54,409 bases of DNA from a virus. Lineage: Duplodnaviria; Caudoviricetes. Shown here one piece after another: positions 17,967 through 54,409 of this stretch. A program made the position numbers and the translations under genes. Location: the IMG/VR virus record IMGVR_UViG_3300022407_001247, positions 1 through 54,409 of that record; one strand, written 5' to 3'. The notes below the pieces were generated by a model. It saw only the letters and a list, made by a program, of their open reading frames with translations, did not search any database and was not told the DNA's origin. Every line of letters begins with the position of its first letter. The stretch's first letter is position 1.

Positions 17967-17970
17967 GGTC

Positions 17971-37173: not shown

Positions 37174-37220
37174 TACTTTTACTCCTTGTGTGGGTGTGAG
37201 CGTGTCACGGTGTGGAAGGT

Positions 37221-40399: not shown

Positions 40400-40410
40400 T
40401 TGCAAAATAG

Positions 40411-40461
40411 TTGTAAGCTGCTTAAAAGTGTTGTACAATGCCCTTACGGCAACGTCGCCGT
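40411..40461 (+). promoter_or_regulatory. Early promoter 1 with downstream palindrome
   Basis: TTGTAA-N17-TACAAT, then ACGGCAACGTCGCCGT (40446-40461). Confidence 0.8.
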
Positions 40462-40484
40462 CTCAATGTTGTAAAGGATCTAGA

Positions 40485-40577
40485 ATGCGCAAAAACAAAC
40501 GTCGAATTTATGCCATGATGGCCACACAAACTGTGAACTTTATGGGATTCAAAACTCTTGCTATGAGTATCAAGTGA
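40485..40577 (+). CDS. Small basic protein, 30 aa (absent from ORF track)
   Basis: MRKNKRRIYAMMATQTVNFMGFKTLAMSIK; AAAGGA RBS; TGATG coupling to the next gene. Confidence 0.55.
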   Translation: MRKNKRRIYAMMATQTVNFMGFKTLAMSIK

Positions 40578-40792
40578 TGAAGTTCAAACTTGACATAGCT
40601 AGGGATGTAGACACTGATGAACCTGGAGTCTACATCATGAACTTGCCAGGTGGCTGGAAGTTCAACCATGACCCATTTGATTTGTGCCATACACGAGCGT
40701 ATGACTCAATGAAAGAGTTGCGGGCAGACATCAAGCATTCGGTCGAGCCGTGTGCTTGCGCTGAATGCAAGCGAATGATTTCCGCAAAATAA
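40577..40792 (+). CDS. Hypothetical early protein with C-terminal CxCxxC
   Basis: Coupled start; ends just before promoter 2. Confidence 0.65.
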   Translation: MKFKLDIARDVDTDEPGVYIMNLPGGWKFNHDPFDLCHTRAYDSMKELRADIKHSVEPCACAECKRMISAK

Positions 40793-40793
40793 A

Positions 40794-40845
40794 TTGTGCA
40801 GCACCTAAAAAGTGTTGTACAATGCAATCACGGCAACGTCGCCGT
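40794..40845 (+). promoter_or_regulatory. Early promoter 2 with downstream palindrome
   Basis: TTGTGC-N18-TACAAT, then ACGGCAACGTCGCCGT (40830-40845). Confidence 0.8.
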
Positions 40846-40865
40846 CTCAATGTCGAAAGCTTATC

Positions 40866-41129
40866 ATGACCGTCCTCACTGCAAACAACCCACTCATCGT
40901 GACCATCAAAAACGTCTATGGCAAAGAGATGATCTATCCTGCCAACTCAGTCGCACAGATTTTTGCCGACATTGCACGGCAAACAACCTTGAGCCGTGAC
41001 ACACTCAAGCTTGCACAAGCACTCGGCTACAAAGTTGAAGTCAAGCAGCAAGAATTGTCTTGGTCTAAAGATAACGTTCTTGGAGAATCATTTGCTGGCC
41101 ATTGGGCAAAAAACGGCGTTGCTTCTTAA
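40866..41129 (+). CDS. Hypothetical early protein
   Basis: 'IKNVYGKEMIYP..FADIA..TTL..ALGY' pattern; first ATG after promoter 2. Confidence 0.7.
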   Translation: MTVLTANNPLIVTIKNVYGKEMIYPANSVAQIFADIARQTTLSRDTLKLAQALGYKVEVKQQELSWSKDNVLGESFAGHWAKNGVAS

Positions 41130-41151
41130 AACAAACTACTTTGGAACTGTC

Positions 41152-41313
41152 ATGAACGCACTCACTAAAGACATCATGAAGTGGCTCAACATTGACGTTG
41201 AGCTTGCAATTGCCGTGCAATACAAGATGATGGAAACCGGCATCAGTTTTGGCAGCAGCTCAACGCGTGAGCTCAAGCAGTGCGCAAAAGAATGTCTGGA
41301 CTTGGTCAAATGA
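41152..41313 (+). CDS. Hypothetical early protein
   Basis: MNALTKDIMKWL...; ATGA overlap downstream. Confidence 0.55.
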   Translation: MNALTKDIMKWLNIDVELAIAVQYKMMETGISFGSSSTRELKQCAKECLDLVK

Positions 41314-41423
41314 AAGTCTTCTTAGCACTTGTTGTCATATCGGCCTTAGTGCCGTTCGTTTGGTTTGGCTATTGGGCTAGAACCGCCATAGAGCGGTTGT
41401 GGGATTGGGCCATTTCCAAATGA
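41310..41423 (+). CDS. Small membrane protein, 37 aa (absent from ORF track)
   Basis: MKVFLALVVISALVPFVWFGYWARTAIERLWDWAISK; ATGA overlaps at both ends. Confidence 0.6.
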   Translation: MKVFLALVVISALVPFVWFGYWARTAIERLWDWAISK

Positions 41424-42988
41424 AGCTCTACAGGCATCAAGTCCAAGCAATCGAGTGGCTAGGTCAAAGACCTAAAGCCATTCTTGCGCTTGACATGGGT
41501 CTAGGCAAGACTTGCGTGTCTAGCCTAGACCTGTCTGTGCCTGCATTAGTCGTGTGTCCAGCATCACTCAAGCTCAACTGGCAAGCCGAGCTCAAGACAT
41601 GGCGGCCTGAACTCAGCGTGCAGGTTGTTCGCAGCCCCAAAGATCCAATCAAAGGCCTTGACGTCACCATTGTCAACTATGACATACTAGGAAAACTTGA
41701 CCTACCAACGCCGTCCACTTTGATCGTAGACGAAGCTCACTACATCAAGAACTACAAAGCCAAGCGTACCAAGTTGCTGATGGCCTTGATCAAAGCCACA
41801 ACCAATGTCAGCCTATTGACAGGCACTCCTATAGTCAATCGACCCATCGAACTGTGGACCTTGCTCTATTCGATTGGAGCTACAAAGCTAGGCTACTTTG
41901 AGTTTGGTATGCGGTTCTGTGCAGGATGGAAAACACCCTGGGACACTTACGACTTCAGCGGCTCAAGCCGCAAAGGCGAGCTGATCAGCGTGTTAGAGCC
42001 ATTCATGCTGAGGATGACCAAAGAAGAGTGCATCGACCTGCCCTCAAAAACCTATCGAATTATTGCCCTTGATTTGCCAGTTGACAAGCGTGAGAAGCAG
42101 TTCAGTCAAGACCAGATTGACAAGCCAGATTCAATCCCGTTTGAAGCCATCAGTGACATCAGACGACTCAACGCAGAGCGCAAATTAGACCAATCTATAA
42201 GCTACATCAAAGACTGCCTTGAGCAGGTCGACAAGGTCGTGGTCTTTGCACATCACACGCACATCATCGATGAACTCATGAGTGCCTTTAAGGACTATGG
42301 GCCAGTCATGATCACGGGGTCTGTCAAGAACGAAGACAGACACGCAGCAGTCTTAGCATTCCAAAATGATCCTAAGTGTAGGGTCTTTGTAGGCAACATC
42401 AAAGCCGCTGGAGTGGGTCTAACCCTAACAGCAGCAAGCCACGTCATATTTGTTGAAGCACCATGGTCTCCTGCAGACCTTCAACAAGCAGCAGACCGCT
42501 GCCACAGAATCGGTCAACAAAACAGCGTCATTATTGACTTGTTGACGATAACCGGGTCCATCGATGAAATTATCTTACACAAGATTCTGACTAAGATGGA
42601 CGTCATTGACAGTATCATTAAGGAGTCCACGGACATGAACGAGAAATTGATTGCAGCCAAGCTGCGTGAGCTGGCCGAATTGTTTGAAGGTATGGAACCT
42701 GTTGCTAAAGTCATCGAGCAGGCAAATGATAAGCAGCTCAAGGCCATCGAGCAAGCTGCACCTAAGGCCATCGAGCAAGCTGCACCTAAGGTTGCAAACC
42801 AAGCCAAACAAATGGAAATTGAACCATTCACGCTTGACAACATCCGTCAAGCCATGGCTAGGTTGATCGGAGCCGGCAAACGTGACCAAGCACTTGCCAT
42901 TCTTGCCAAGCTTGGCGTTGCTAAAGTCAGTGAAATCGCCGAAGAGCAATTTGATCAAACCATGGAATTGATCAATGAAACACGCTAA
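41420..42988 (+). CDS. SNF2/HARP-like SF2 helicase with C-terminal extension
   Basis: 'DMGLGKT', 'VVCPASL', 'DEAH', 'LTGTP', 'GVGLTLTAA' and 'QAADRCHRIGQ'. Confidence 0.92.
   Translation: MKLYRHQVQAIEWLGQRPKAILALDMGLGKTCVSSLDLSVPALVVCPASLKLNWQAELKTWRPELSVQVVRSPKDPIKGLDVTIVNYDILGKLDLPTPSTLIVDEAHYIKNYKAKRTKLLMALIKATTNVSLLTGTPIVNRPIELWTLLYSIGATKLGYFEFGMRFCAGWKTPWDTYDFSGSSRKGELISVLEPFMLRMTKEECIDLPSKTYRIIALDLPVDKREKQFSQDQIDKPDSIPFEAISDIRRLNAERKLDQSISYIKDCLEQVDKVVVFAHHTHIIDELMSAFKDYGPVMITGSVKNEDRHAAVLAFQNDPKCRVFVGNIKAAGVGLTLTAASHVIFVEAPWSPADLQQAADRCHRIGQQNSVIIDLLTITGSIDEIILHKILTKMDVIDSIIKESTDMNEKLIAAKLRELAELFEGMEPVAKVIEQANDKQLKAIEQAAPKAIEQAAPKVANQAKQMEIEPFTLDNIRQAMARLIGAGKRDQALAILAKLGVAKVSEIAEEQFDQTMELINETR
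42635..42988 (+). CDS. Probable in-frame nested gene (117 aa) inside the helicase ORF
   Basis: TAAGGAG at 42619-42625, then an in-frame ATG at 42635. The product resembles the small protein that usually precedes DUF2800 genes. Confidence 0.55.
   Translation: MNEKLIAAKLRELAELFEGMEPVAKVIEQANDKQLKAIEQAAPKAIEQAAPKVANQAKQMEIEPFTLDNIRQAMARLIGAGKRDQALAILAKLGVAKVSEIAEEQFDQTMELINETR
42740..42791 (+). repeat. 24-bp tandem repeat x2 (KAIEQAAP linker)
   Basis: aaggccatcgagcaagctgcacct twice, plus aagg. Confidence 0.9.
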
Positions 42989-44066
42989 GCTCTCACCGAG
43001 TGCTAGCTCTAGATGGATGACTTGTCCAGGGTCTGTTCATCTAGAACCTGATGTCAAAGGTGGTGGTTCAAGTGTCTACGCAGAAAAAGGCACGGCAATG
43101 CATGAAGTGTCTGATCTGTGTTTGACCAAAAACCTTAAACCAACCACCTTTGTTGGCAAAACGGTCAATGGCCACATCGTCACGCATGAAATGGCTGAAC
43201 TTGTTCAAGTGTATGTCCACTACATGCAAGCCCTAAACGGTGACAAATACTACGAAGAAAAAGTCACACTCGCAGAGGTCATCAATGACTGCTGGGGCAC
43301 GGCCGATGCAATCGTTGTTGATGGTTCATTGATGAGGGTCATTGACCTTAAGACAGGCGGTGGTGTGCGCGTAGAAGCCGAAGGCAACACCCAATTGCTT
43401 TGCTATGCACTTGGCGCTTACCTTAAGTACAGTCCAGTCTACGATATAGCCAACATCGCGATGACCATAGTGCAGCCACCGATGAACAGCATTGACAGCT
43501 GGACTATTGAACTAAACGAACTCTTAGCATTTGCTGAAGAACTAAAGCGTTCTTACGCAGCCATTCAAAACGAACCAAACAAGTTTGTGGCTAGTGAGAA
43601 AGCTTGCAAGTGGTGTCATGCAAGAGCCAAATGTCCAGAAATGAAACGACTGGCCAATGAAGCAGCTGCGGTTGACTTCAAAGACATGAGCCTAGATAGC
43701 ATTGAAGAATGGATGCCTAAGCTTAGCCTGTTGCAGTCATTCATTGATGCGGTTGAGGCTAAAGCCAAAGACACTCTACTTGCTGGTGGTCAAATCAAAG
43801 GCTGGAAAGTAGTAGAGGGTCGCAAAACCCGTGACTGGCTAGACAAGTCAAAAGCCGAACTTTGGTTCAAGCAGCAAGGCTATGACAACATCTACACTGA
43901 GTCTGAGCTGTTGAGCGTTGCACAGATGGAAAAAAAGATGAAGTCTGAAAGTTTAGACTTTACAAACTTCATCAAGGTTTCCAATGGCAACCCGACCATT
44001 GTACCTGAAAAAGACAAAAGGGGTTCAATAGACAAAGGTCAGTCAGCAAAAAAAGATTTTGCATAA
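42975..44066 (+). CDS. DUF2800 Cas4-like PD-(D/E)xK nuclease
   Basis: 'HAKLSPS..RW..CPGS', 'GTAMH', 'WGTAD', 'IDLKTG', 'QLLCYALG' and 'CKWC..CP'. Confidence 0.88.
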   Translation: MKHAKLSPSASSRWMTCPGSVHLEPDVKGGGSSVYAEKGTAMHEVSDLCLTKNLKPTTFVGKTVNGHIVTHEMAELVQVYVHYMQALNGDKYYEEKVTLAEVINDCWGTADAIVVDGSLMRVIDLKTGGGVRVEAEGNTQLLCYALGAYLKYSPVYDIANIAMTIVQPPMNSIDSWTIELNELLAFAEELKRSYAAIQNEPNKFVASEKACKWCHARAKCPEMKRLANEAAAVDFKDMSLDSIEEWMPKLSLLQSFIDAVEAKAKDTLLAGGQIKGWKVVEGRKTRDWLDKSKAELWFKQQGYDNIYTESELLSVAQMEKKMKSESLDFTNFIKVSNGNPTIVPEKDKRGSIDKGQSAKKDFA

Positions 44067-44079
44067 AGTCAAAAATAAA

Positions 44080-44130
44080 TTGTGCAGCGCTTAAAGGCGT
44101 TGTACAATTCAATCACGGCAACGTCGCCGT
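44080..44130 (+). promoter_or_regulatory. Early promoter 3 with downstream palindrome
   Basis: TTGTGC-N17-TACAAT, then ACGGCAACGTCGCCGT (44115-44130). Confidence 0.8.
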
Positions 44131-44150
44131 CTCACTGTTGAAAGATCATC

Positions 44151-45122
44151 ATGGCACACGAACTCGATTTCTCTAACTCCCAAGCCAACTTTGCCCACAA
44201 GGGTGAAAAAGCATGGCACGGCCTTGGCCAGCAACTCGAAGCAGGTCAGCCCATTGAAGTGTGGGCAAAAGCTGCAGGCTTGTCCCATACTGTGGAGCGC
44301 TCAATTGTTCAATACGAAGCAAACGGCCTTTTGTTGCCCCATACCAACAAAGACGTGTTGTACCGCTCTGACACATTTGCACCTCTCGGCGTGGTCAGCG
44401 GCGACTACAACATTGTCCAGCCTGCAGATGTGTTAGACTTTTTTGCACGTCTTGCTGAGAACAACAACTTTGAACTGGAAACAGCAGGTTCACTTTCAGG
44501 CGGCAAGCGCATCTGGGCAATGGCTAAAGTCAACGATGGAGCTACCATAATTGGTCAGGACGTCGTCAAACCCTATGTCCTGTTGGCAACATCATATGAC
44601 GGCACTCTTGCAACCACGGCGCGATTCACATCAGTCCGTGTTGTGTGCAGCAATACGCTTGGCTATGCCTCAGCTGAGTCCGGCGACACAGTCAAAATCA
44701 ATCATTCAAAAGAGTTCAGCTCCAAAGACACAGCCCTTGATCTTGGCATCGCAATCAACGGCTTTGAAAAGTTCTTGATCGACTCACGCCGCTTAGCTGC
44801 AAAAGAGGTCAACAGCACGTTTGCAGTTCAGTTCCTCAAGACTCTGCTGCCTATCAGCATGTCTACAAAGACTGTGAACGGCATCAAAGTCCAAGAGCAA
44901 GTGCCTGTTGAAAAGACTAAAGCATTCCAGTCGATCATGGCATTGTTCAATGGTCAAGCTATCGGCAATGAGCTGCCTGAAGCTGAAGGTACTGCTTGGG
45001 GTTTGCTCAACGCTGTGACTGAGCATGTTGATCACGGTCTCAACCAGAATGCAGCATGGTTTGGCTATGGCAACGCCTTGAAGAATAAAGCTCGTGACCT
45101 GCTGGTTGAGGTCACAGCTTAA
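44151..45122 (+). CDS. DUF932 (TIGR03299-like) protein
   Basis: 'AWHGLG', 'ETAGSL.GGKRIW', 'SYDGT', 'RVVCSNTL' and 'GTAWGLLNAVTEHVDH'. Confidence 0.88.
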   Translation: MAHELDFSNSQANFAHKGEKAWHGLGQQLEAGQPIEVWAKAAGLSHTVERSIVQYEANGLLLPHTNKDVLYRSDTFAPLGVVSGDYNIVQPADVLDFFARLAENNNFELETAGSLSGGKRIWAMAKVNDGATIIGQDVVKPYVLLATSYDGTLATTARFTSVRVVCSNTLGYASAESGDTVKINHSKEFSSKDTALDLGIAINGFEKFLIDSRRLAAKEVNSTFAVQFLKTLLPISMSTKTVNGIKVQEQVPVEKTKAFQSIMALFNGQAIGNELPEAEGTAWGLLNAVTEHVDHGLNQNAAWFGYGNALKNKARDLLVEVTA

Positions 45123-45197
45123 CAGCATACACGCACTGCCTTGCGTGTATGACAGGTCGGAAAGACGGCCACTTCATCAACGTTTTAAGGACTAAAA

Positions 45198-45722
45198 ATG
45201 TCAAAGCTTGTTACCCCTGAGTTCCGCGGTTCTTTTGTGCACATCCTCGAACCCCATGCCATCAAAGGCGTCGAGAATGCCAAAGCACGCTATCAAATCA
45301 CAATCCCGCTGCCAAAAAAGGACGGCTTCTGGACCAAACTCAATGCTCTGGTTGAAGAGACTGCCAAAGCAAAATGGGGCAAAATCCCTGCAAAGATGAA
45401 GTCACCTGTCAAAGATGGTGACGAAGAAGAGCGTCCTGAATTGGCTGGTTGCTACAGCGTGCAAGCCACTTCCAACAACAAGCCTGGCATTGTTGATGCT
45501 GCCCTAAACCCCATCATGGATGGCGATGAGATCTACAGCGGTGCTTACTATCGTGCATCGATTCGTGCCTATGCTTGGGACCATCCTACCGGCGGCAAAG
45601 GCGTGTCCATTGCTTTGGACAATGTCATGAAAGTCAAAGATGGTGAGGCATTCAGTGGTCGCACCGATGCATCTGCTGACTTTGCTGACTTTGCCAAAGA
45701 AGACGCTGACTTGCTTGGCTAA
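45198..45722 (+). CDS. ssb: ssDNA-binding protein (DUF2815/Enc34-type)
   Basis: 'SFVHILEP', 'KDGD', 'IYSGAY.RASI' and 'GVSIALDNVMKVKDGE'; acidic C-terminal tail. Confidence 0.85.
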   Translation: MSKLVTPEFRGSFVHILEPHAIKGVENAKARYQITIPLPKKDGFWTKLNALVEETAKAKWGKIPAKMKSPVKDGDEEERPELAGCYSVQATSNNKPGIVDAALNPIMDGDEIYSGAYYRASIRAYAWDHPTGGKGVSIALDNVMKVKDGEAFSGRTDASADFADFAKEDADLLG

Positions 45723-45798
45723 AGTCAATAGCTAGCACGGGTCAACGTGCCAGTCGGGTGAGAAGCCCGTTCAACCAATCAATACGAAGGAGTTAGTT

Positions 45799-46548
45799 AT
45801 GGAAAGCAGGATCATGGGCCTTGTCAAGGCCATGCACAAAAAGTTTGACTTGGCCAATACTGGCAAACCTTGCCATCTTGAAGCTCATGAGAAGGCCTTT
45901 CGAGTCAAAGCCCTTCAAGAAGAACTTGATGAATACAACGCAGCAACTACACTGGTCGATGAGTATGATGCTCTTCTCGACTTGATCGTGTTTGCTGTCG
46001 GCACACTTGATCGACAAGGGCTGCCTTTGCTTGAAGGCTTTGAGAAAGTCATGAAAGCAAACATGGCCAAAGAGGTTGGCCAAAATGGTGAAAAGCGCGG
46101 TGGCTTCAAGCGTGATTTGGTCAAGCCTAAAGGCTGGACTGGCCCTGAAGCAGAGCTTAAACTCATCATTGATCGGGTTCCAAGCACTGAGTCAATGGCA
46201 CCTAGTTCAGATGGAACCATCGTGCAAGGCTTTGCACCTAAGTTTGATGCAACAAAAGTGCGGGTGGACTTGCTGCCAATAGAGCCAATGATGCAAGTTG
46301 CCGATGTCTTTGGGTTTGGCGCCAAAAAGTACTTTGCCAATTCTTACCGCAACGGCGAGACTGTTGTTTGGTCACGCACATATGGGTCTGTCTTAAGGCA
46401 CCTTTTTGCTTTTTGGAAAGGTGAAGACACTGATCCAGAATCAGGCTTGCCACACCTTGCCCATGCCGGAACTCAACTCTTCATCTTGATGGAGCACACC
46501 ACTCACAACAAAGACAAAGACGATCGCTTTGCTAGGTCACAGTCATGA
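45799..46548 (+). CDS. Fusion of a MazG/PRA-PH-like NTP pyrophosphohydrolase and a DUF5664 (dATP/dGTP diphosphohydrolase) domain
   Basis: N-half 'EELDEY..DALLDL..V..ANMAK..KPKGW..P'; C-half 'KFD..K.R.DLLP..FGAKKY..RHL..GEDTDPESGLPHLAHA'. Confidence 0.85.
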   Translation: MESRIMGLVKAMHKKFDLANTGKPCHLEAHEKAFRVKALQEELDEYNAATTLVDEYDALLDLIVFAVGTLDRQGLPLLEGFEKVMKANMAKEVGQNGEKRGGFKRDLVKPKGWTGPEAELKLIIDRVPSTESMAPSSDGTIVQGFAPKFDATKVRVDLLPIEPMMQVADVFGFGAKKYFANSYRNGETVVWSRTYGSVLRHLFAFWKGEDTDPESGLPHLAHAGTQLFILMEHTTHNKDKDDRFARSQS

Positions 46549-47180
46549 ACGTACAAAGCATCAGAGACCTGTTCAAAGCTATGAAGCCGGACGAATCTGG
46601 AATGTTGGAGATTGTCAATGCGTCATTCATAGCAGATGAGCCTTCCATTTTTGGTGAAGTTAACGACTCATGGAATGCTCGTGAGCTTCGTTGGTACATG
46701 AGCCAGTCATTGAATGTCAATGACATTGCCCCGCCAGTGCCTACAGTCTGGCAACAAGTTGCAAGCAAAAAGGGTCGTATCAACTCGAACTACGGTTGGT
46801 GTGTCTTTAGTCAGCAGAACGGCTACCAATTCCATAAAGCAATCGACTCGCTAGTTGCCAACAAGGCTAGTAGGCAAGCCGTGATCATTTACATCCGACC
46901 CTCAATGCATGAAGACAGTTGCATGGATGGAATGAGGGACTTTATGTGTACGTACAGCACTCAGCTGCTCATTCGTGCCGGGCAGCTGCATCACATTGTC
47001 AACATGCGGTCCAATGATGCCATCTATGGTTACAAAGGCGATAGGTTTTGGCAAGACACAGTTCATGACTTTGCACTTGCACGTCTACAGCAAACTTACC
47101 AAGACTTGGTAAAAGGCAACCTGTACTGGAATGCAGGCTCTTTGCACATCTATCCACGGCACGCCGGGCTTATCAAATGA
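46545..47180 (+). CDS. dCMP hydroxymethylase-like protein (T4 gp42 family, thymidylate synthase fold)
   Basis: 'ASFIADEP', 'RELRWY', 'WQQVAS.KG.INSNYGW', catalytic 'DFMCT', 'MRSNDAIYGYKGD' and 'WNAGSLHIY' closely follow T4 gp42 as I recall it, including the Asp179-equivalent. Confidence 0.88.
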   Translation: MNVQSIRDLFKAMKPDESGMLEIVNASFIADEPSIFGEVNDSWNARELRWYMSQSLNVNDIAPPVPTVWQQVASKKGRINSNYGWCVFSQQNGYQFHKAIDSLVANKASRQAVIIYIRPSMHEDSCMDGMRDFMCTYSTQLLIRAGQLHHIVNMRSNDAIYGYKGDRFWQDTVHDFALARLQQTYQDLVKGNLYWNAGSLHIYPRHAGLIK

Positions 47181-48133
47181 TCTACAACCCTTTTGCATCA
47201 ATACCTGTCCGTCCAAAAAGTCATGTACGTGGCTGGGCCATGCATTGGGCAGAATGCCTTGGCGTACCGGTTGCAGGGCCAACTGACACGTTAACTTGCC
47301 CAACTTTATACATTGAGCACGGTGTCAATTTTGGCGGAGTGCTCAATCTGTTCGGAGGGGTCAGCGAAGGCTTAGTTGACAGGCTTGAAGAGTTGGCAAA
47401 CTACAAGGGCCAGTTGGTTAGCTTGGATTGGCCTATGCCAAACTATGCACATCAATTGTCCAGGAGGTTAGGCCAAGCCACGTGTTCGCCTAGGCTGACT
47501 CCCGCCCTTTTGGCCGACTTGGATGCCCGTCTGAAGAACTCAACAACACTGACCCAACAGGATCTTAAAAGTGACGTGGTTGCAATCGGCGACAGTCACT
47601 CAACAGCCTTTGCAGCTAGTGGATCTAGTGTAATTCGGACCAACGGGCTAACTTTGCATGGGGCATTGCAAAAAGGTCATTTTGTTGAGCAAATAGGCCG
47701 CTTGGTTCACAAACCAAGGCGCGTAACGTTAGTCTGTGGATCAATAGACATCCGACACCATATCGGTCGACAGAGCGCTCCTAAACAAGCCGTCATTGAC
47801 TTATGCAACAACTACGCTGATGTGGCTGACTTTTTAACCGATGAGTTCAATCTTCAAGTTGAAATTGCTGCAACTGTACCGATCGAATGGGAAAAGCGCA
47901 AGATCCCTCAAACAGGTTTTTATAAAGGAACACCATTTGCAGGCAGCTTAGATCAAAGGCGATATTGGACTGAATTGTTCATAGACAAAATGAGCCAACT
48001 GTGTTTGATCAAGCCCCCAGATGATTGGTACTCTATGGGCCCTGAGGAGTATGCAAACACCTACATGGAGCTCAACTCGTCGGTGCACATTGCACCTCCT
48101 TTCTATCGTCGTTTTGACTGGGGTCAACTATGA
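47177..48133 (+). CDS. Two-domain protein with an SGNH/GDSL-like C-terminal domain
   Basis: 'IGDSHS' (block I), 'NGLTLHG', 'GSIDIRHH' (block III-like) and 'SSVH' (block V-like); coupled to both neighbours. Confidence 0.55.
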   Translation: MIYNPFASIPVRPKSHVRGWAMHWAECLGVPVAGPTDTLTCPTLYIEHGVNFGGVLNLFGGVSEGLVDRLEELANYKGQLVSLDWPMPNYAHQLSRRLGQATCSPRLTPALLADLDARLKNSTTLTQQDLKSDVVAIGDSHSTAFAASGSSVIRTNGLTLHGALQKGHFVEQIGRLVHKPRRVTLVCGSIDIRHHIGRQSAPKQAVIDLCNNYADVADFLTDEFNLQVEIAATVPIEWEKRKIPQTGFYKGTPFAGSLDQRRYWTELFIDKMSQLCLIKPPDDWYSMGPEEYANTYMELNSSVHIAPPFYRRFDWGQL

Positions 48134-49056
48134 GCATCTTTACGTGCACAACGAGCAAATCAAACATGGACATTCCGGCAGGCATGGATCCGCATGCCGC
48201 TAGATCTCACTACATTGCAATGCGCAATGGTTTTAAGTCAAAGTTGTCAGCCCCTGTAGTCCAAGCCCATGGCAAAAAATGGGTATTCAGAGGCGATGCT
48301 AGTGCAAGCAGCTTGAAGGGCTATGGTGCTGAGCAATTGATAGCAGAGTGCAAAGAAGATGTCTTAGTCTATTGCGCACCTCGTGTAGGTATGGCTATGG
48401 ATGCAATTGCAACCCTTGCCAAACTTTATGACAAGCACTGCGTGTTCTTTTGCCCAGCATCAGGAGAGCCCTCAATGCATCAAAAAGCCTTATTGGCTTA
48501 TGGTGCTGACTTGCGCTTTATCAAAATTGCAGCAATGCCAACTCTGAACAGTTACGCTAAAAAGTGGGCTGAAAAGCATGGAGCAAAGTACCTGCCTTTT
48601 GGACTTGGCAAAACCCCATCGGTGACAGCTGGGATTGTCAATCTTGCAGGACACATCACTGAAAAACTAGGCAAAGACCCTAGTGAAATTTGGATGTCCG
48701 TCTCTACTGGAACAGCTATCCGTGCATTGCAAATAGCTTGGCCTAAAGCAGCTTGCCGAGGTGTAATCGTAGCTCGCAACATGCACGATGGCGAGATTGG
48801 CAATGCAACGTTATGGTCAGCATCTCAACCATTTTTGAAAGACGTACCTCTAAACAAACGACCGCCCTTCCCATCAACTGCAAACTACGACGCTAAGTGC
48901 TGGGAAGACTTTGAAAACTTTGGCATCAATGACTCAATTTTTATCAATGTCGGCACCGATGACAAAGTAGTGGCCATGTATAAACAAGTCAAAGATACAC
49001 CGTTGAGCAGCCAGCGGGAATGGGGTGACATGTCTGACTTGGAGCGTGGACTATGA
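48130..49056 (+). CDS. PLP-dependent enzyme, fold type II (DNA-hypermodification decarboxylase-like)
   Basis: 'SLKGYG' Lys, 'APRVG', phosphate loop 'SVSTGT' and 'PPFPS..NYDAK.W', as recalled for phage hypermodification PLP enzymes. Confidence 0.75.
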   Translation: MSIFTCTTSKSNMDIPAGMDPHAARSHYIAMRNGFKSKLSAPVVQAHGKKWVFRGDASASSLKGYGAEQLIAECKEDVLVYCAPRVGMAMDAIATLAKLYDKHCVFFCPASGEPSMHQKALLAYGADLRFIKIAAMPTLNSYAKKWAEKHGAKYLPFGLGKTPSVTAGIVNLAGHITEKLGKDPSEIWMSVSTGTAIRALQIAWPKAACRGVIVARNMHDGEIGNATLWSASQPFLKDVPLNKRPPFPSTANYDAKCWEDFENFGINDSIFINVGTDDKVVAMYKQVKDTPLSSQREWGDMSDLERGL

Positions 49057-50186
49057 GAATTGAAACAACAGCCTACTATGATGAGATGGTTCGCTATGCT
49101 GGGATGGCAAAGGTCCAGCAAATCGAATGCAACTTAGGCATCATTCCTCACATGCACGGGTCGATCAAAGATGACTTGATGCGTTATGTTGAACTTTATG
49201 ACGTTGTCAACCGTAAGTATGCCGGCTTTACGCAAATCGTTTTAGATCTTTTCTACAACACTTCACCAGAACACCCGTATGCCCACAAACTGCATGCAGT
49301 AAGGCAGCCAATTTGCAAATCGTTTGAAGGTGTTGAAGGCGTGTGGGGCTTAAAAGAATGGCTCTACGTGTTCATCCTACATCGGGTCACAGGCAGTGGC
49401 ATCAACTACGCAAAAAAGCCTAGTGGGTACAACAACACCATCTTGCCAAAACTTGCCTCATGCGATACCATTGAGCAAATGGCTAAGGTCATTGTCAATC
49501 GAACGTCATCAATCTACACTTCAGTAGGCTATCAATTCCCAGCTTTCCCAAAACCTGTAGGAGACTACAAGCTAGGCGGTGACTACTTCTTATGCAGCTA
49601 CGCCCCTCAACTTGCTAGAGATCTTGCCGAATGGCTAAATGCAAAAGGCAAGCAAGATCTTCGTGACATTGGTGAATGGATGTTCAACTGGAACAAGACT
49701 CAAGGGTTGCGAGCCTACAAGTTTCAATACGCAGCAGTCGTTAGCGACATTGCTGATTTCTTTCCTCAGTTCACAAACCTAAACAGTCCATTCTTTTACG
49801 GCACAAATGCAAAAGAGTGTTTGAAGTACGCAGCCATCCAGCTGTCTAAAGGCAATGAGCAAGACTTCCTAGACGAGGTCACTATGAAGTTTTGCAATGA
49901 GATTGGCTCGACTGCCTATGACGGTGAAGACATCTTTTGCGATGGCATCAGATGGCTAGAAAACTATGTCAGACCTGGCCATGACTATAGCCATGTCAAT
50001 CGCGACAAAGTTTGGAATAGCAGCACAATCATCGATCATCCCTATGGTCGTCAAAAGGCAATGCTCGATCATGGCTTGATCGAGTCATTCAACCATCTAA
50101 GCATCCATCCATCTGATGACTATGTGCTCAAACAAGCCGGAGTGAGCAAGGATCAGTATTTGTTAAAAGTTCACGGCTTAGACTAA
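49053..50186 (+). CDS. Putative amino acid:DNA transferase (aGPT-PPase/AADT-like, divergent)
   Basis: C-terminal 'FQYAAVVSD', 'YGTNA' and 'EDIFCD..RW' parallel the F..D / G.GA / E..LCE..KY motifs of aGPT-PPases; gene context agrees. Confidence 0.55.
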   Translation: MRIETTAYYDEMVRYAGMAKVQQIECNLGIIPHMHGSIKDDLMRYVELYDVVNRKYAGFTQIVLDLFYNTSPEHPYAHKLHAVRQPICKSFEGVEGVWGLKEWLYVFILHRVTGSGINYAKKPSGYNNTILPKLASCDTIEQMAKVIVNRTSSIYTSVGYQFPAFPKPVGDYKLGGDYFLCSYAPQLARDLAEWLNAKGKQDLRDIGEWMFNWNKTQGLRAYKFQYAAVVSDIADFFPQFTNLNSPFFYGTNAKECLKYAAIQLSKGNEQDFLDEVTMKFCNEIGSTAYDGEDIFCDGIRWLENYVRPGHDYSHVNRDKVWNSSTIIDHPYGRQKAMLDHGLIESFNHLSIHPSDDYVLKQAGVSKDQYLLKVHGLD

Positions 50187-50206
50187 ACGATTGTACAATT
50201 AAAATC
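50170..50206 (+). promoter_or_regulatory. Promoter variant without the palindrome, possibly giving a leaderless mRNA
   Basis: TTGTACAAT at 50191-50199; ATG 7 nt downstream with no SD. Confidence 0.5.
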
Positions 50207-50635
50207 ATGACAAGACCAACACTAGACCAAACTTACATGCAAGTTGCTAGAGCATTTGCCAAAAGGGCAACGTGTTCCAGAAGGCAAGTCGGTGCCGTCA
50301 TAACGGGCAATGGCTACATCTTATCATCAGGCTACAACGGATCCTTCCCAGGATCTAAGCACTGCATTGATGTACCATGCGCAGGGGCAGGACTGCCTAG
50401 CGGTTCAGGTCTAGATCTTTGCATGTCAGCTCACGCTGAACAAAATGCAATAGCCAGACTGCGTCAAGTCGATGAAGCAGACACTTTGTACTGCACAACG
50501 GCGCCATGCATAAGCTGCACCAAACTGGCATTGTGCACAAGCATAAAGCGCATAGTTGCTGATCAGGACTACCCATCTAGTGGCAAAGACTTATGGCTTT
50601 TGGCCGGCCGCGCATGGAGTAACTATGCGGAATAA
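50207..50635 (+). CDS. dCMP deaminase
   Basis: 'ATCSRRQVGAVI', 'GYNG', 'HAEQNA' and 'PCISC'. Confidence 0.92.
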   Translation: MTRPTLDQTYMQVARAFAKRATCSRRQVGAVITGNGYILSSGYNGSFPGSKHCIDVPCAGAGLPSGSGLDLCMSAHAEQNAIARLRQVDEADTLYCTTAPCISCTKLALCTSIKRIVADQDYPSSGKDLWLLAGRAWSNYAE

Positions 50636-52403
50636 GGCCGTACTTGACATCGAGTGTTATGTCAACTACTTTTTGATTGCCGTCAAGTCCATTGCTAATG
50701 GCAAGATTGCAACGTTTGAGCGTTCAGATTGGGAAGACTTTGACACCGAGCAACTTAAGAGTCTTTTGTCCAAGTACACCATTGTCACTTTTAACGGCAA
50801 CCGCTACGATTTGCTGCTGCTCAAAGGTGCTATTGCGGGCTTTGAGCCTGCTAAGCTTAAGGCCTTATCCGATGACATCATTGTCAATGACCTTAGAGCT
50901 TGGGATGCCGAGTCAAAGTACACCCTACCTAGGTGCATGTACATCGACCACGTTGACTTGATTGAGGTGGCGCCAGGCAAAGCATCGCTTAAGATTTACG
51001 GCGGTCGCTTGCACAGTAAGCGCATGCAAGACTTGCCAATAGAGCCAAATGCAACAATCAATAAAAGTGAAAGAGACTCGTTGAGTGGCTATTGCATCAA
51101 TGATCTAGACACAACTATCGACCTATACGGCAGGCTTAGCGGGCAGATTGAGCTGCGTGAACAGATGGGCAAAGAGTATGGCTTGGAGTTGCGTTCAAAG
51201 TCGGATGCACAAATAGCAGAGTCAGTGATCAAAAAGCAGATTGAGGCAATCAAAGGAGACAAAGTCTATCGACCTAGTCTGCCCAAAGACTTTTCATTCA
51301 GTTACGTGCCTCCCTCATTCATTGCGTTTAAGCACCCAGAACTGCGCTATGCCCTAGACATTTTTAAGACAAGGCCATTCACGCTCGATGAAAAAGGCGA
51401 CGTTGCTGAACCATCAGAAGTTGGCAAACTTAAAGTCAAGGTCGGGTCTAGCACTTACCAACTTGGAATCGGTGGCATACACTCTTGTGAGAAAAAGATC
51501 TACTATGTCGCTGATGCCGACCATGTCATCGCTGACCGCGATGTTACTAGCTACTATCCCAACATCATCCTGAACCAGCTGCTCTACCCTAAACACATTG
51601 GGCCTGACTTTTTGACCGTCTACAAATCCCTTGTGGAGAAAAGGATCAAGGCAAAAAGAGAAGGCAACAAGGTTGTCAATGAAGCACTAAAAGTTACGAT
51701 CAATGGGAGCTTTGGTAAATTTGGATCTAAGTGGTCGGCCCTCTACGGGCCAAACCTACTCATTCAAACCACGGTGACCGGGCAGCTAAGCCTTTTGATG
51801 CTTATTGAGGCCCTTGAAGAGCAAGGCATTAGCGTAGTGAGTGCCAATACTGATGGCATCATCATCTATTGCCACAAGCGCAACCAAGCGGCTATGGAAA
51901 CCATCATTGCCAACTGGGAAAGAACAACCGGCTTTGGCACAGAAGAAACCCCATATTCGGCGGTCTACTCGCGTGACATCAACAACTACATTGCACTTAA
52001 GCGCAATGGTGGCTATAAAGTCAAAGGAGTTTACGCAGATGAAAACCTGTCCAAGACCCCAACGACTCAAGTATGCACGCAAGCCGTGGTGGACTACTTA
52101 CAGCTAGGCATTCCAATAGAAACCACAATCCATGAATGTGTAGACATCTGCAAATTCATCTCAGTTAGAGCCGTCACCGGAGGTGCCGTCAAGAACAATG
52201 AGTACCTAGGCAAAGCGGTACGCTGGTACTATGCCAAAGATGAGCTAGGAGCCATACACTACAAGAAGAATGGCAACAAGGTCCCTGTGACAGATGGAGC
52301 AAAGCCACTCATGATTTTGCCTGACTCTTTGCCCAATGATATTGATCATGCTTGGTACATCAAAAAAGCATACGCAATGCTTAATGACCTCGGGGTCAAA
52401 TAA
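50625..52403 (+). CDS. DNA polymerase, family B-like with 3'-5' exonuclease
   Basis: ATG 50625 with GGAG RBS. Exo motifs DIECY, FNGNRYD and YCIND; pol motifs DVTSYYP, KVTINGSFGK and SANTDG. Confidence 0.92.
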   Translation: MRNKAVLDIECYVNYFLIAVKSIANGKIATFERSDWEDFDTEQLKSLLSKYTIVTFNGNRYDLLLLKGAIAGFEPAKLKALSDDIIVNDLRAWDAESKYTLPRCMYIDHVDLIEVAPGKASLKIYGGRLHSKRMQDLPIEPNATINKSERDSLSGYCINDLDTTIDLYGRLSGQIELREQMGKEYGLELRSKSDAQIAESVIKKQIEAIKGDKVYRPSLPKDFSFSYVPPSFIAFKHPELRYALDIFKTRPFTLDEKGDVAEPSEVGKLKVKVGSSTYQLGIGGIHSCEKKIYYVADADHVIADRDVTSYYPNIILNQLLYPKHIGPDFLTVYKSLVEKRIKAKREGNKVVNEALKVTINGSFGKFGSKWSALYGPNLLIQTTVTGQLSLLMLIEALEEQGISVVSANTDGIIIYCHKRNQAAMETIIANWERTTGFGTEETPYSAVYSRDINNYIALKRNGGYKVKGVYADENLSKTPTTQVCTQAVVDYLQLGIPIETTIHECVDICKFISVRAVTGGAVKNNEYLGKAVRWYYAKDELGAIHYKKNGNKVPVTDGAKPLMILPDSLPNDIDHAWYIKKAYAMLNDLGVK

Positions 52404-52409
52404 AAATAG

Positions 52410-52460
52410 TTGTATAGGTCTAAAAAGGGTTGTACAATGCAATCACGGCAACATCGCCGT
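52410..52460 (+). promoter_or_regulatory. Early promoter 4 with downstream palindrome
   Basis: TTGTAT-N17-TACAAT, then ACGGCAACATCGCCGT (52445-52460). Confidence 0.8.
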
Positions 52461-52483
52461 CTTAATGTTGTAAGGACTTTTTT

Positions 52484-52729
52484 TTGAGCAATTTTATAAA
52501 GACTCGCGTCGCAGGCATTCCATGCACCGCCCGCGTTGACTATGTGAACGTGGTCAAGGGTAGCTACAACTACAACGCTGCTAGCGACCACGACTACCAC
52601 GGCTACTCAGAGATCGACTGGGAACTCTGCGACCGCCGAGGCCGCCCCGCCCCCTGGTTGGCCAAGAAGCTCACCATCGCCGACACTGCCAGGATCGAAA
52701 ATGAAATACTCGAGCACTCAAATGACTGA
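52484..52729 (+). CDS. Conserved hypothetical phage protein
   Basis: TTG start after AAGGA; 'GIPC..SDHDYHGY..DRRGRPAPWL.KK'. Confidence 0.7.
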   Translation: MSNFIKTRVAGIPCTARVDYVNVVKGSYNYNAASDHDYHGYSEIDWELCDRRGRPAPWLAKKLTIADTARIENEILEHSND

Positions 52730-52820
52730 AATCTCTCCAATCCGCGTCGCACTGGCGCTTACCTACGTGGCAGCAATGCTCACACTCTACCTTGATGTCT
52801 TTGTCTGGAGGACTGTATGA
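52722..52820 (+). CDS. Small membrane protein, 32 aa (absent from ORF track)
   Basis: MTEISPIRVALALTYVAAMLTLYLDVFVWRTV; fills the gap with overlaps on both sides. Confidence 0.6.
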   Translation: MTEISPIRVALALTYVAAMLTLYLDVFVWRTV

Positions 52821-53017
52821 CTTTAATTCAACTTGCCAAGCAAACTCTTCGACGCCTCACCCCTGCCCAAATGGCGGCTACTGAACTTGCAGAAGCCGAA
52901 CTGCACCGACTTGAAGCACACACGGCAATGGAGTACGCTAGCAGTATGGTTAGCTACGAGGACGCTAGGATTAAACGCCTGCGGAAGTTCTTGTCTGATG
53001 CGGAGAAAACAGTATGA
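52817..53017 (+). CDS. Hypothetical early protein
   Basis: GGAGG RBS; ATGA coupling. Confidence 0.7.
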   Translation: MTLIQLAKQTLRRLTPAQMAATELAEAELHRLEAHTAMEYASSMVSYEDARIKRLRKFLSDAEKTV

Positions 53018-53277
53018 GCATTTTGGAAGAGATACGGGTCAACCGCACCCCCAGCCATATGGTGCGCCCCGCAGCCCTTGAGTTGCAAAAGCAAACCAAG
53101 CGGATCATGGGCGAGTACGTGGAACGCGAGAAGCAACCCGGCGAAGTGCAAGCATCTGACAACGACTTGTGGCAACGTCCGGTTTACCGCACAGGTGACG
53201 GCGATCACACTGCCCAAGTGCCACGCGAGGGTAGCCTTGTGGCTTTTAGCCTGCCAAGCCGGGGGAATCGGACATGA
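53014..53277 (+). CDS. Hypothetical early protein
   Basis: C-terminal 'R.GS..AFSLPSRG' motif; coupled to neighbours. Confidence 0.7.
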   Translation: MSILEEIRVNRTPSHMVRPAALELQKQTKRIMGEYVEREKQPGEVQASDNDLWQRPVYRTGDGDHTAQVPREGSLVAFSLPSRGNRT

Positions 53278-53570
53278 CTGACCTTGAAATCGACAAGGCG
53301 CTGGCATTGGCTATTGGGCACAAGGTAGCCTATGTAACTGTGCTTGGTGAAGGCATCCCACAAGTGTGGGTGCAAGTAGACCCGAGATTTGAGTGGGCTA
53401 TTCGCGTCTTCGACCACCGCGACTGGAACGTGATCGGCCCGATTGCGGAGCGGTACAACATGTTTCCTTACAGTGTTGGTGGCTGGTGGAATGTGGCTGG
53501 CTACGGGCAACCAAGTTCACAAACTCCACAGAACGCAATTGCATTGGCAGTAATAGGAGCAAAGAAATGA
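53274..53570 (+). CDS. NinX/DUF2591-like protein
   Basis: 'IDKALALAIG', 'DWNVIGPIAE' and 'PQNAIALA' pattern. Confidence 0.5.
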   Translation: MTDLEIDKALALAIGHKVAYVTVLGEGIPQVWVQVDPRFEWAIRVFDHRDWNVIGPIAERYNMFPYSVGGWWNVAGYGQPSSQTPQNAIALAVIGAKK

Positions 53571-53686
53571 ACGACGACGACATCGAAGACCTTTACCGCC
53601 CAGATTGGGTGGCACTTGGAATTGCCACTGCGATCTCGCTGGTGTCGCTTGCGGCATTGGCTTTTTTGTTGGGGTACTTGACATGA
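53567..53686 (+). CDS. Small membrane protein
   Basis: AGGAG RBS, ATG 53567, one TM helix. Confidence 0.6.
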   Translation: MNDDDIEDLYRPDWVALGIATAISLVSLAALAFLLGYLT

Positions 53687-53892
53687 CTAAAGAAGAAATC
53701 ATCCGCATGGCGCGTGAGGCTGGGTTTGCTGATTCTGAAGGGGTAGTACACGCCGCGTATCAGCTTGAGCGCTTTTTCAAAGCCGCCTACGCCGCAGGAG
53801 CAGCAGCCGAGCGAGAGGCGTGTGCAATGGTGGCCGAGCAGCGAAGCGAACCGGGCACTGCGGCTTTCATCCGCGAAAGGGGAAACACATGA
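53683..53892 (+). CDS. Hypothetical early protein
   Basis: 'MTKEEIIRMAREAGF..AEREACA' small phage protein family; coupled. Confidence 0.7.
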   Translation: MTKEEIIRMAREAGFADSEGVVHAAYQLERFFKAAYAAGAAAEREACAMVAEQRSEPGTAAFIRERGNT

Positions 53893-54272
53893 CTGACAGA
53901 GAAGTGATGCAGCAGGCGCTGGAGGCGTTGGTTAAATCAACGGGCGAGTTGCACAGGTACTACAGCAGTCCAACGGACATGCAAATCCTACTCAATCACA
54001 AAGTTATCACCACCCTGAAAGCCGCACTGGCACAGTCAGAGCAGGAGCCGAGTCAGTGGCGCGACATGGTGGTGGTCAGCCTAGTCCGAGAGGGCATCAA
54101 CAAGCACAAGGCACGGGAATTGGCTGATCACTTTGCCACCCCACCCGCAGCACAGCGCAAGTCTCTGACGGACGATCAACTTGATGAAATTGCTGTAATT
54201 GCGAGAAGGGGCAATTTGCATGACCTTCGTATTGCCATCGAAGCCGCCCACGGCATTAAGGAGGGGACATGA
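53889..54272 (+). CDS. Hypothetical early protein
   Basis: 'MQQALEAL', 'LTDDQ' and 'AIEAAHGI' motifs; coupled. Confidence 0.7.
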   Translation: MTDREVMQQALEALVKSTGELHRYYSSPTDMQILLNHKVITTLKAALAQSEQEPSQWRDMVVVSLVREGINKHKARELADHFATPPAAQRKSLTDDQLDEIAVIARRGNLHDLRIAIEAAHGIKEGT

Positions 54273-54409
54273 CACAAGAACGATTGACGGCCCTTGAAGA
54301 TGTTGCTGCCTTGGCAACAATTGGGGCGACTTATCCGGAACTGATGCTTTATTTGCAAGCTGAAATGGCGAAGTGTGAGCAAGCCCTTGCAGCACAGCCA
54401 GAGCAGGAG
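54269..54409 (+). CDS. 5' part of the gene that continues into 2..421
   Basis: ATG 54269 with RBS; reads through the circular junction. Confidence 0.75.
   Translation, partial: MTQERLTALEDVAALATIGATYPELMLYLQAEMAKCEQALAAQPEQE
54283..54409. repeat. Terminal direct repeat, right copy
   Basis: Identical to 1..127 (attgacggcc...gagcaggag). Confidence 0.95.

Follow-up and report, generated by a model that had tools for sequence, protein, structure and literature searches.

Introduction

In Salmonella phage ViI the base 5-(2-aminoethoxy)methyl-dU is made by a 5-hydroxymethyl-dU DNA kinase (5-HMUDK, gp67/gp243), a serine:DNA transferase (gp247) and a pyridoxal phosphate (PLP) decarboxylase (gp226) (PMC8989533). 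All characterised pathways with an amino acid:DNA transferase (AADT), as described in the same paper, act on thymine-derived 5-hydroxymethyluracil (5hmU) and begin with a DNA kinase. The known decorations of 5-hydroxymethylcytosine (5hmC), as listed in PMC8670742, are sugars and a carbamoyl group. Here we analyse a cassette of six genes in the virus record IMGVR_UViG_3300022407_001247 (Caudoviricetes), which is referred to as the window at its full length of 54,409 bp. The cassette codes for precursor enzymes of the 5hmC type and for three further proteins: P0001 with an SGNH/GDSL-like domain, the PLP enzyme P0002 and the AADT-like protein P0003. With moderate confidence we propose that it directs a post-replicative, amino-acid-derived hypermodification of 5hmC, with the SGNH module standing in for the kinase.

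The ViI system has the same general outline, i.e. a hydroxymethyl-pyrimidine in the DNA, a helical base-flipping transferase, a fold-type-II PLP decarboxylase and no radical-SAM isomerase (PMC8989533). The differences are that cytosine is expected in the window, which codes for a gp42-type enzyme, that there is no P-loop DNA kinase, that the transferase-like protein falls outside the Pfam family ADDT, and that it has an SGNH-like partner. Pseudomonas phage M6 has in gp52 a protein of the same family as P0002 (phrog_7093), with an aligned PLP lysine and the C-terminal motif PFP...YD.K.W in common; P0002 is, however, 22% identical to gp52, and M6 needs the radical-SAM isomerase gp53 first. No gene for a radical-SAM isomerase was found beside the window cassette in Pfam and PHROG scans. 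The solved structure that P0003 matches best is PaMx11 gp46 (PUGT, the 5-phosphomethyl-dU glycinyltransferase; 8z2m), and both have Glu-x-x-x-Cys in a late helix. In contrast to these likenesses there is no profile similarity between the two, P0003 is 85 residues longer and has Asp for Thr244, and the substrate of gp46 is phosphorylated 5hmU, whereas there is no kinase here.

On the cytosine side, T4 with gp56, gp42 and cd follows the same pre-replicative logic and has a close homologue of the window hydroxymethylase in gp42. The pyrophosphatase of the window is, in contrast, of the MazG type, and neither a gp1-type kinase nor an alpha- or beta-glucosyltransferase was found. The original prediction for this locus, which had been made from the sequence alone, had recognised no glycosyltransferase, and a search of the whole genome with the T4 beta-GT, AGT and GT2 families agrees (no match at E <= 1). 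In the 5hmC carbamoyltransferase cassettes of the MetaGPA study, found in metagenomic phage contigs with modified cytosine, a thymidylate synthase (TS) homologue, a PRA-PH pyrophosphatase and a dCMP deaminase frame the 5hmC-decorating enzyme (PMC8670742). The decorating module of the window consists instead of the SGNH, PLP and AADT-fold proteins, with no carbamoyltransferase. Finally, CmoA/CmoX/CmoY of Synechococcus phage S-B43 produce the glycine amide of 5-carboxymethylcytosine (5cxmC) and thus also place an amino acid on C5 of cytosine in phage DNA; the chemistry there is a transfer from carboxy-S-adenosylmethionine followed by an ATP-dependent amide ligase, and the abstract mentions no hydroxymethylase, PLP enzyme or AADT-fold protein (PMC12783734). 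In a literature search outside subscription journals and supplementary files we found no description of an AADT-type, amino-acid or aminoalkyl modification of 5hmC. The original prediction knew of no characterised base of the kind it proposed; for AADT-type products of 5hmC this agrees with our literature search, but the glycine amide of 5cxmC is in print (PMC12783734).

The Proposed Pathway

The six genes run in the same direction between the gp2.5-type single-stranded DNA-binding protein (SSB) and the family-B polymerase (Table 1). All six open reading frames had been predicted at these places and were confirmed on the + strand, as were both flanks by their matches to PF10991 and phrog_1252. 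The first four junctions are, as had been noted, 4-bp overlaps, each of them an ATGA start/stop overlap, and they are followed by a 20-bp gap before the deaminase gene.

The model postulates a pre-replicative and a post-replicative part. In the first part the MazG-type enzyme, for which dCTP is the predicted substrate, would hydrolyse dCTP to dCMP, and the gp42-type enzyme would turn dCMP into 5-hydroxymethyl-dCMP. Host kinases would raise this nucleotide to the triphosphate and the phage polymerase would then build 5hmC DNA. The host kinases are invoked because no phage deoxynucleoside monophosphate (dNMP) kinase was found in the genome, in which the sole Walker A motif sits in the primase-helicase. 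The deaminase would turn some of the dCMP into dUMP, from which the host makes thymidylate. In the second part P0003 would flip 5hmC out of the duplex and P0001, with Ser140 and His304, would activate the hydroxymethyl group, for example by esterifying it. Cys296 of P0003 would attack C6, expel the leaving group from the 5-CH2 and add the nucleophile, as in AADTs, after which P0002 would use Lys63 to decarboxylate the attached amino acid. Decarboxylation needs a free alpha-amine and the amino acid should therefore be attached by its side chain, like the serine of ViI. The product would be an aminoalkyl-type 5-substituted cytosine, e.g. a base like 5-(2-aminoethoxy)methyl-cytosine. What we observe are the gene identities, the key residues, the gene linkage and a gene fusion; we infer each chemical step beyond 5-hydroxymethyl-dCMP, what P0001 does and which amino acid is attached.

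Precursor Enzymes

The hydroxymethylase aligns over residues 16-210 with residues 27-225 of T4 gp42 (PDB 1b49) and is the sole match to PF00303, the ThyA family, in the genome (E 9e-13). Four diagnostic positions can be read from the alignment. Cys135 aligns with T4 Cys148 (E. coli Cys146), the catalytic cysteine. Asp166 aligns with T4 Asp179 at the position of ThyA Asn177, where the PDB mutant entries carry Asn, and Asp132 aligns with T4 Asp145, the acidic residue at the position of ThyA Leu143. Asp158, finally, aligns with T4 Asp171 at the position of ThyA Asp169. All four residues are kept in 31/31 sequences, that is the window copy and 30 hydroxymethylases encoded near P0003 homologues. 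In a 2026 paper, Asp at the ThyA Asn177 position is described as selecting dCMP over dUMP, and the acidic residue at the Leu143 position as admitting water so that the product is hydroxymethyl and not methyl; Asn at the Asp169 position marks the flavin-dependent 5-hydroxy-dCMP synthases, RB69 gp48 and others (PMC13326640). A 5-hydroxy-dCMP synthase of the RB69 gp48 type was considered and ruled out, as Asp158 is kept and Asp, with no Asn, is found here in all 31 sequences. By its residues the protein is of the dCMP hydroxymethylase type, and neither of the dUMP type nor of the 5-hydroxy-dCMP type. The T4 gp42-like enzyme that had been predicted is thus recovered, and the use of dUMP, which had been named as an outcome that would speak against cytosine, is not what the residues point to.

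The predicted double nucleoside triphosphate pyrophosphatase also stands. Its first domain is PRA-PH (PF01503, residues 9-88, E 8.6e-7, 29.7 bits against a cut-off of 21.3) and the second is dGTP_diPhyd_N (PF18909, residues 148-243, E 3.7e-28, 97.8 bits against a cut-off of 27), both of them MazG-like, and an AAGGAG ribosome-binding site precedes the ATG. The deaminase, as originally named, scores 72.5 bits with PF00383 and has the zinc motifs HAE at 76-78 and PCISC (PCxxC) at 100-104.

The SGNH Module and Its Fusion to P0003

The AlphaFold (AF2) model of P0001 has a pLDDT of 94.2, and residues 130-318 adopt an SGNH fold (Foldseek match to 3mil, E 2.9e-4). In the VIA search the best match is 7tog (Z 13.1, root mean square deviation (rmsd) 3.3, 170 residues aligned), and all 50 matches listed, from Z 13.1 to 8.9, are SGNH/GDSL proteins, O-acetyltransferases of the PatB and OafB type among them. 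Residues G138-D139-S140-H141, G157, G188, D191, H194, H195, E298, S302 and H304 are invariant in 45/45 P0001 sequences. By comparison with the SGNH consensus and not from a superposition, G188-S-I-D191 may be block III and S302-V-H304 block V; in both stretches, again invariant in 45/45, the family would then depart from the usual pattern, as the first has Asp in place of the common Asn and the second lacks the Asp of the Asp-x-x-His motif. The fold and the invariant GDSH bear out the SGNH-like protein of the original prediction. For the N-terminal domain (about residues 1-125) no fold match was found; the structural matches cover mainly 126-318 and an Atlas search with residues 1-128 gave no usable match. 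A sequence search of P0001 against PDB gave nothing useful either.

A profile search with P0003 matched 171 clusters at 50% identity, and among the 150 of these that were listed there are eight proteins of at least 494 residues. Among the matches listed at least seven metagenomic proteins, 639-790 residues long, are fusions with a P0001-like N-terminus and a P0003-like C-terminus. The N-termini match P0001 in blastp with E 1.8e-21 to 1.9e-39 and in hhalign with a probability of 99.7-100, and the C-termini match P0003 with E 2.1e-15 to 1.6e-44; GDSH is kept in 7/7 and E-D-x-x-C in 5/7. This Rosetta-stone arrangement is the strongest evidence that P0001 and P0003 work as one unit, as judged from the sequences. 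A complex prediction for the two proteins scored 0.00, which is no evidence either way. A place of the SGNH-like protein among the side tailoring enzymes was not borne out, since in seven proteins it is joined to the transferase-like module in one chain. A P0003 homologue of 494 residues (P0254) has an N-terminal extension of about 113 residues which is not P0001-like.

The families of 5-hydroxymethyl-dU DNA kinases and the HMUDK_hel domain (PF18748, PF18747, PF18723) gave no match at E <= 10 in the complete genome. The canonical version of the amino-acid-transfer route that had been predicted needs a 5-hydroxymethyl-pyrimidine DNA kinase, and in that form the route does not hold for this genome, in which none is detectable. 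P0001 is proposed as the activator because the genome has no DNA kinase and because P0001 is fused to the P0003 module in other phages. That the SGNH module replaces the canonical kinase is further suggested by the architecture of the canonical kinases, which join a catalytic domain to a helical domain of the same fold class.

The Transferase-Like Protein P0003

The AF2 model of P0003, built from 46 homologues, has a pLDDT of 88.4. When it was compared with 48,161 solved chains in the VIA search the first match was 8z2m_A, i.e. PaMx11 gp46, with Z 8.7, rmsd 4.3 and 208 residues aligned; the next ten are queuine-salvage enzymes (QNG1) and helix-hairpin-helix (HhH) DNA glycosylases (AGOG, OGG, AlkA, EndoIII). 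An AADT or HhH-glycosylase-like fold, the absence of which had been put forward as a ground for giving up the prediction, is thus present in the model. The best match in BFVD has 52% identity and is named "Amino acid:DNA transferase domain-containing", with weaker matches to AADT, Pplase1 and HMUDK-helical-domain proteins, and in 24/30 named Atlas neighbours HMUDK_hel is present in 11-13% of the members.

The most conserved motif is E292-D293-x-x-C296-D297, the four residues being kept in 62, 55, 61 and 58 of 63 superfamily sequences, respectively. The AADTs have E243-T244-x-x-C247 in 7/7, and for PaMx11 gp46 it has been proposed that Cys247 attacks C6 and that Glu243/Thr244 hold a metal at O4 of the base (PMC11472151). 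No Pfam, PHROG or NCBIfam match and no useful PDB sequence match was found for P0003, and the NCBIfam search of P0001 to P0004 found nothing. P0003 seems to be a new family whose relation to AADTs, on the evidence of the model, lies only in the fold and the motif. The AADT-like protein predicted at this place is therefore recognised by its fold and by an E-x-x-x-C motif that may correspond to that of the AADTs, and is not found in the Pfam family ADDT or in profile-profile comparison with seven AADTs.

The PLP Enzyme P0002

P0002 matches positions 15-278 of the 279 in phrog_7093 (Table 1), and M6 gp52 falls in the same PHROG (E 2.2e-159). Lys63 is invariant in 21/21 sequences (P0002, 19 homologues from viral contigs and M6 gp52) and lies in the column of gp52 Lys36. 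M6 gp52 is reported to bind PLP experimentally and to decarboxylate C-alpha-glycinyl-thymine in DNA, with Lys36 as the proposed Schiff-base lysine (PMC8989533). P0002 is thus a homologue of this DNA-base decarboxylase, with a putative activity on DNA. A sequence search of P0002 against PDB gave nothing useful.

Linkage of the Genes in Other Viruses

Of 1,894 candidates, 798 proteins belong to the P0003 family at E <= 0.001, whereas a search of 50,697 cultured-phage records gave no match. The family occurs in phages of about 55 kb which are like the window and in T4-like contigs that reach 180 kb and have gp45, gp44 and UvsX homologues. The neighbourhoods were analysed in the best 80 viral loci of at least 579 IMG/VR stretches, many of these loci being truncated. 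By clustering, an SGNH gene lies near the P0003 homologue in 50/80 loci, a PLP gene in 44/80 and a hydroxymethylase gene in 30/80; SGNH and PLP genes occur together in 43/80, and all three in 27/80. Counted by blastp to the window copies the numbers are 51, 46 and 34 of 80, and in the 33 loci where each flank is at least 4 kb long they are 26, 21 and 15. The survey of co-conservation that had been suggested shows in this way that SGNH, PLP and hydroxymethylase genes travel with P0003 in many viral contigs.

Observations Weighing against the Model

A number of observations weigh against the model and have to be set beside the evidence above. The Z of 8.7 for P0003 is middling, and in helical proteins a Z below about 13 can reflect a common arrangement. 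A Foldseek search of P0003 against PDB gave no match at E <= 0.001, the best being 1xg7 with E 0.45, together with weak glycosylase matches; it should be noted that the authors of the gp46 structure likewise report only glycosylase/lyase neighbours, with Z about 6 (PMC11472151). None of 46 members of the P0003 family matches Pfam ADDT (PF18724, formerly aGPT-Pplase2) at E <= 5, and there is no ADDT match in the genome at E <= 10; PaMx11 gp46 itself scores 97.1 bits. When the profiles of the P0003 family and of the 63-sequence superfamily were compared by hhalign with gp46 alone or with the 7 AADTs, the probability was 0.2 to 1.5%. The equivalence of Cys296 with gp46 Cys247 is suggested by the offset between the aligned ranges (307-258 = 296-247) and not by a residue-by-residue alignment.

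P0002 scores 26.2 bits with Pfam PALP (E 6.1e-6), which is under the curated cut-off of 35 bits, and its pairwise match to M6 gp52 is weak (E 0.002). The genome encodes no known means of activating the hydroxymethyl group, and we found no precedent for an SGNH protein in this role. Complete replacement of cytosine is not assured when the phage has no dNMP kinase of its own. Of the amino-acid-derived cytosine pathway in the original prediction, the gene identities and their linkage have stood up; P0003 does not belong to the ADDT sequence family, and a canonical kinase is not detectable in the genome.

Alternative Models

One alternative places the PLP enzyme upstream of the DNA, where it would act on a free amino acid and make a beta-substituted amino acid as donor. 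The SGNH module and P0003 would attach this donor to 5hmC, possibly as an ester, which gives a hypermodified cytosine with no decarboxylation. The family profile of P0002 has its best PDB match in cysteine synthase/O-acetylserine sulfhydrylase (E 4.2e-6), followed by tryptophan synthase beta, and the Lys63 column falls on the KDR lysine of cysteine synthase; together with phrog_7093 and Lys63 this agrees with the fold-II PLP enzyme that had been predicted. SGNH enzymes, to which all 50 listed matches of P0001 belong, are esterases and acyltransferases, and no kinase is present in the genome. However, P0002 shares its PHROG with a decarboxylase that works on DNA, M6 gp52 (PMC8989533), and fold type II is no argument against decarboxylation because ViI gp226 has been modelled on the same fold, with a tryptophan-synthase-beta-like template (PMC8989533). 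We consider this alternative unlikely.

Another alternative is that the DNA carries plain or partial 5hmC and that P0001, P0002 and P0003 serve other ends, for example a glycosylase-like function in anti-defence or repair for P0003, beside unrelated metabolic enzymes. With Z 8.1 to 7.2, queuine-salvage hydrolases and 8-oxoG glycosylases come nearly as close to P0003 as the AADT does. Furthermore, 27/80 loci have none of the three partner genes, and 25 of these 27 belong to one derived clade (loci L011-L029, L032, L034-L037, L039, L040 and L070; example L032:6054-6833) which thus keeps P0003 without partners. The clade has a support of 99/93 and is nested among loci with partners in a tree that is midpoint-rooted only. 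Its loci have an HhH-GPD protein (PF00730, E 1.7e-7) before the P0003 homologue and the families c7 and c2 after it. In one record of this clade, 174 kb long and rated complete, there is neither a gp42-like gene nor a match to PF00303 or Tet_JBP, so the P0003 family does not always depend on a recognisable hydroxymethylase. These distributions are further points against the pathway that we propose. On the other side stand the 4-bp gene overlaps, the natural SGNH-P0003 fusion and the SGNH and PLP genes that lie together next to P0003 in more than half of the 80 loci. The nearest characterised relative of P0002 is a DNA hypermodification enzyme, and a motif with a near-invariant Cys (61/63) fits a C6-attacking transferase and not a glycosylase. 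Taken together this makes plain 5hmC quite unlikely as the end product.

dCMP deaminases can accept 5-substituted dCMP, and in a third alternative the deaminase would turn 5-hydroxymethyl-dCMP into 5-hydroxymethyl-dUMP, so that the final base is derived from thymine or uracil and 5hmU is hypermodified as in ViI, M6 and PaMx11. A deaminase gene does close the cassette, and it occurs near P0003 homologues in 22/80 loci by clustering and in 10/80 by blastp to the window copy. That the AADT pathways characterised in PMC8989533 all act on 5hmU is in line with this. But T4 likewise has a dCMP deaminase beside gp42, most loci holding the rest of the cassette are without the deaminase, and the experiments of the MetaGPA study linked cassettes with a TS homologue, PRA-PH and a deaminase to a derivative of 5hmC (PMC8670742). 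One may also speculate that Asp293, which replaces the AADT Thr near O4, would suit an amino group at position 4 of the base. A 5hmU-based pathway is in our view improbable to the point where it is hardly to be expected. Least of all do we expect that the free nucleotide is modified before replication: 5hmdCTP is a substrate of the 5hmC carbamoyltransferase from a similar cassette (PMC8670742) and there is no DNA kinase here, but the fold of P0003 is that of base-flipping DNA enzymes, the AADT it resembles was crystallised on dsDNA (PMC11472151) and M6 gp52 acts on DNA (PMC8989533).

Genome, Locus and Assembly

The record has an exact direct terminal repeat of 127 bp (positions 1-127 and 54283-54409), which fits a complete phage genome. 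The minus strand carries from about 1080 to 39851 the genes for terminase, virion and tail-fibre proteins and for the primase-helicase, among others. The replication module lies on the plus strand from about 40100 to the genome end, in the order SNF2 helicase, DUF2800 exonuclease, DUF932 protein, gp2.5/Enc34-type SSB, the six cassette genes and family-B polymerase. In total 74 open reading frames were called, of which 28 were individually scanned against Pfam or PHROGs. The features of the cassette and its neighbours are presented in Table 1.

Table 1. Genes of the cassette and its two neighbours, with positions in the window.
Product	Position	Strand	Evidence
gp2.5/Enc34-type ssDNA-binding protein, left neighbour, outside the pathway	45198..45722	+	PF10991 E 5.9e-42; phrog_112 E 5.6e-48
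Two-domain all-alpha (MazG-type) NTP pyrophosphatase	45799..46548	+	PRA-PH and dGTP_diPhyd_N domains
dCMP hydroxymethylase, T4 gp42 type	46545..47180	+	PDB 1b49 E 2.3e-57; diagnostic residues
P0001, two-domain protein with SGNH/GDSL-like C-terminal domain	47177..48133	+	AF2 model fold; GDSH motif
P0002, fold-type-II PLP enzyme, M6 gp52-like putative decarboxylase of a DNA-borne amino acid	48130..49056	+	phrog_7093 E 4e-46; Lys63
P0003, helical HhH-glycosylase/AADT-fold protein, putative base-flipping group transferase on 5hmC DNA	49053..50186	+	fold and motif only
dCMP deaminase	50207..50635	+	PF00383 E 2.8e-20; phrog_174 E 1.5e-36
Family-B DNA polymerase, right neighbour	50556..52403	+	phrog_1252 E 1e-197

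The longest open reading frame of the polymerase starts at TTG 50556 and shares 80 bp with the deaminase gene. As the match to phrog_1252 begins at residue 22 of the long frame, translation more likely starts at ATG 50625.

All four overlapping junctions are covered by short contigs from the runs of four other studies, with 0 to 9 differences. Run X2 has contigs at 46278-46922, 47902-48335 and 48956-49192, each with 0 differences, and run X5 has one at 47115-47323 with 9 differences. The contig cover of the cassette in runs X2-X5 is partial, and the uncovered parts are no evidence of absence. As the same junctions are found in the runs of four other studies, the gene order is no artefact of a single assembly. 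The cassette itself seems to come from a freshwater metagenome. The best other runs holding the cassette are labelled freshwater (three runs) and soil (one), and no RNA run is among the sequencing runs listed as holding it. Between 40000 and 54409 there was no excess of promoter-like sites (14 against 13.6 in shuffled sequences) or of terminator-like sites (15 against 16.1), and a search of the genome for tRNA genes found none.

The genome looks like a mosaic in its G+C content. The value is 0.564 over positions 1-36000, which hold mostly virion and terminase genes, against 0.483 over 36001-54409, mostly the replication module. An island of low G+C (0.48-0.51) is seen at 12-18 kb (12001-18000), with a pectate-lyase-like tail-fibre gene at 12341-13807.

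Relatives in Cultured Phages and Neighbouring Families

P0001 homologues are found in 43 cultured-phage records, 38 from Aeromonas, 3 from Tenacibaculum and 2 from Stenotrophomonas phages. In the Aeromonas T4-like phages 44RR, 31 and 25 the homologue forms the N-terminus of a 795-residue protein, and in the record of Aeromonas phage 44RR2.8t, which was inspected, it makes up the first 334 residues of ORF233c. ORF233c was considered as an SGNH-P0003 fusion and rejected, since its C-terminal 461 residues show no detectable likeness to P0003 (hhalign probability 0.4 and 0.5%). This tail matches HMUDK_hel below the threshold (E 9.2e-4, 19.1 bits against a cut-off of 25). Phages 44RR, 31 and 25 are listed with genes 42 and 56 and without a glucosyltransferase (PMC2993671). 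In 44RR2.8t (L001:5399-6922) the gene immediately before that of the SGNH-module protein is annotated as similar to a sodium:solute (glucose) symporter.

The sole cultured-phage matches to P0002 are genes annotated "DNA modification methylase" in two phages. In Erythrobacter phage vB_EliS_R6L the P0002-like part belongs to gp1, a large protein which runs across the start of the record, and in Microcystis phage Mae-JY30 the match (locus L003:5995-6705) comes directly after two ParB/sulfiredoxin genes. The sequences give hints that the P0002-type PLP family has other uses in DNA modification.

Family c2, a protein of 334 residues, follows the P0003 homologue in 49/80 loci (e.g. L015:9288-10292); the window lacks it. 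Neither Pfam nor PHROGs gave a match to c2, and it may be a distant paralogue of P0003, for which an hhalign probability of 81.5% (E 1.1e-5) is a moderate hint. Most loci of the clade without partner genes have a SegE-like GIY-YIG endonuclease gene further on, on the other strand.

Significance

The pathway that we propose for the window can be extended into a more general model, which we put forward tentatively and would not call probable. It hypothesizes that a widespread uncultured module of SGNH protein and P0003, as two proteins or as a fusion, activates 5hmC at its hydroxymethyl group and substitutes this group without a kinase and, together with a gp52-like decarboxylase, yields an undescribed base, which could be an aminoalkyl ether, thioether or amine on 5-methylcytosine. 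In this general form the SGNH module would also explain how phages 44RR, 31 and 25 of Aeromonas do without glucosyltransferases. The SGNH/P0003 enzyme pair is not yet studied in any cultured phage.

If the proposed pathway is true, the tailoring with amino acids would be extended to cytosine, and there would be a second way to activate a hydroxymethyl-pyrimidine in DNA. A new cationic cytosine would matter for the evasion of restriction and CRISPR, for sequencing phage DNA from the environment and for enzymes that serve as tools to mark 5hmC.

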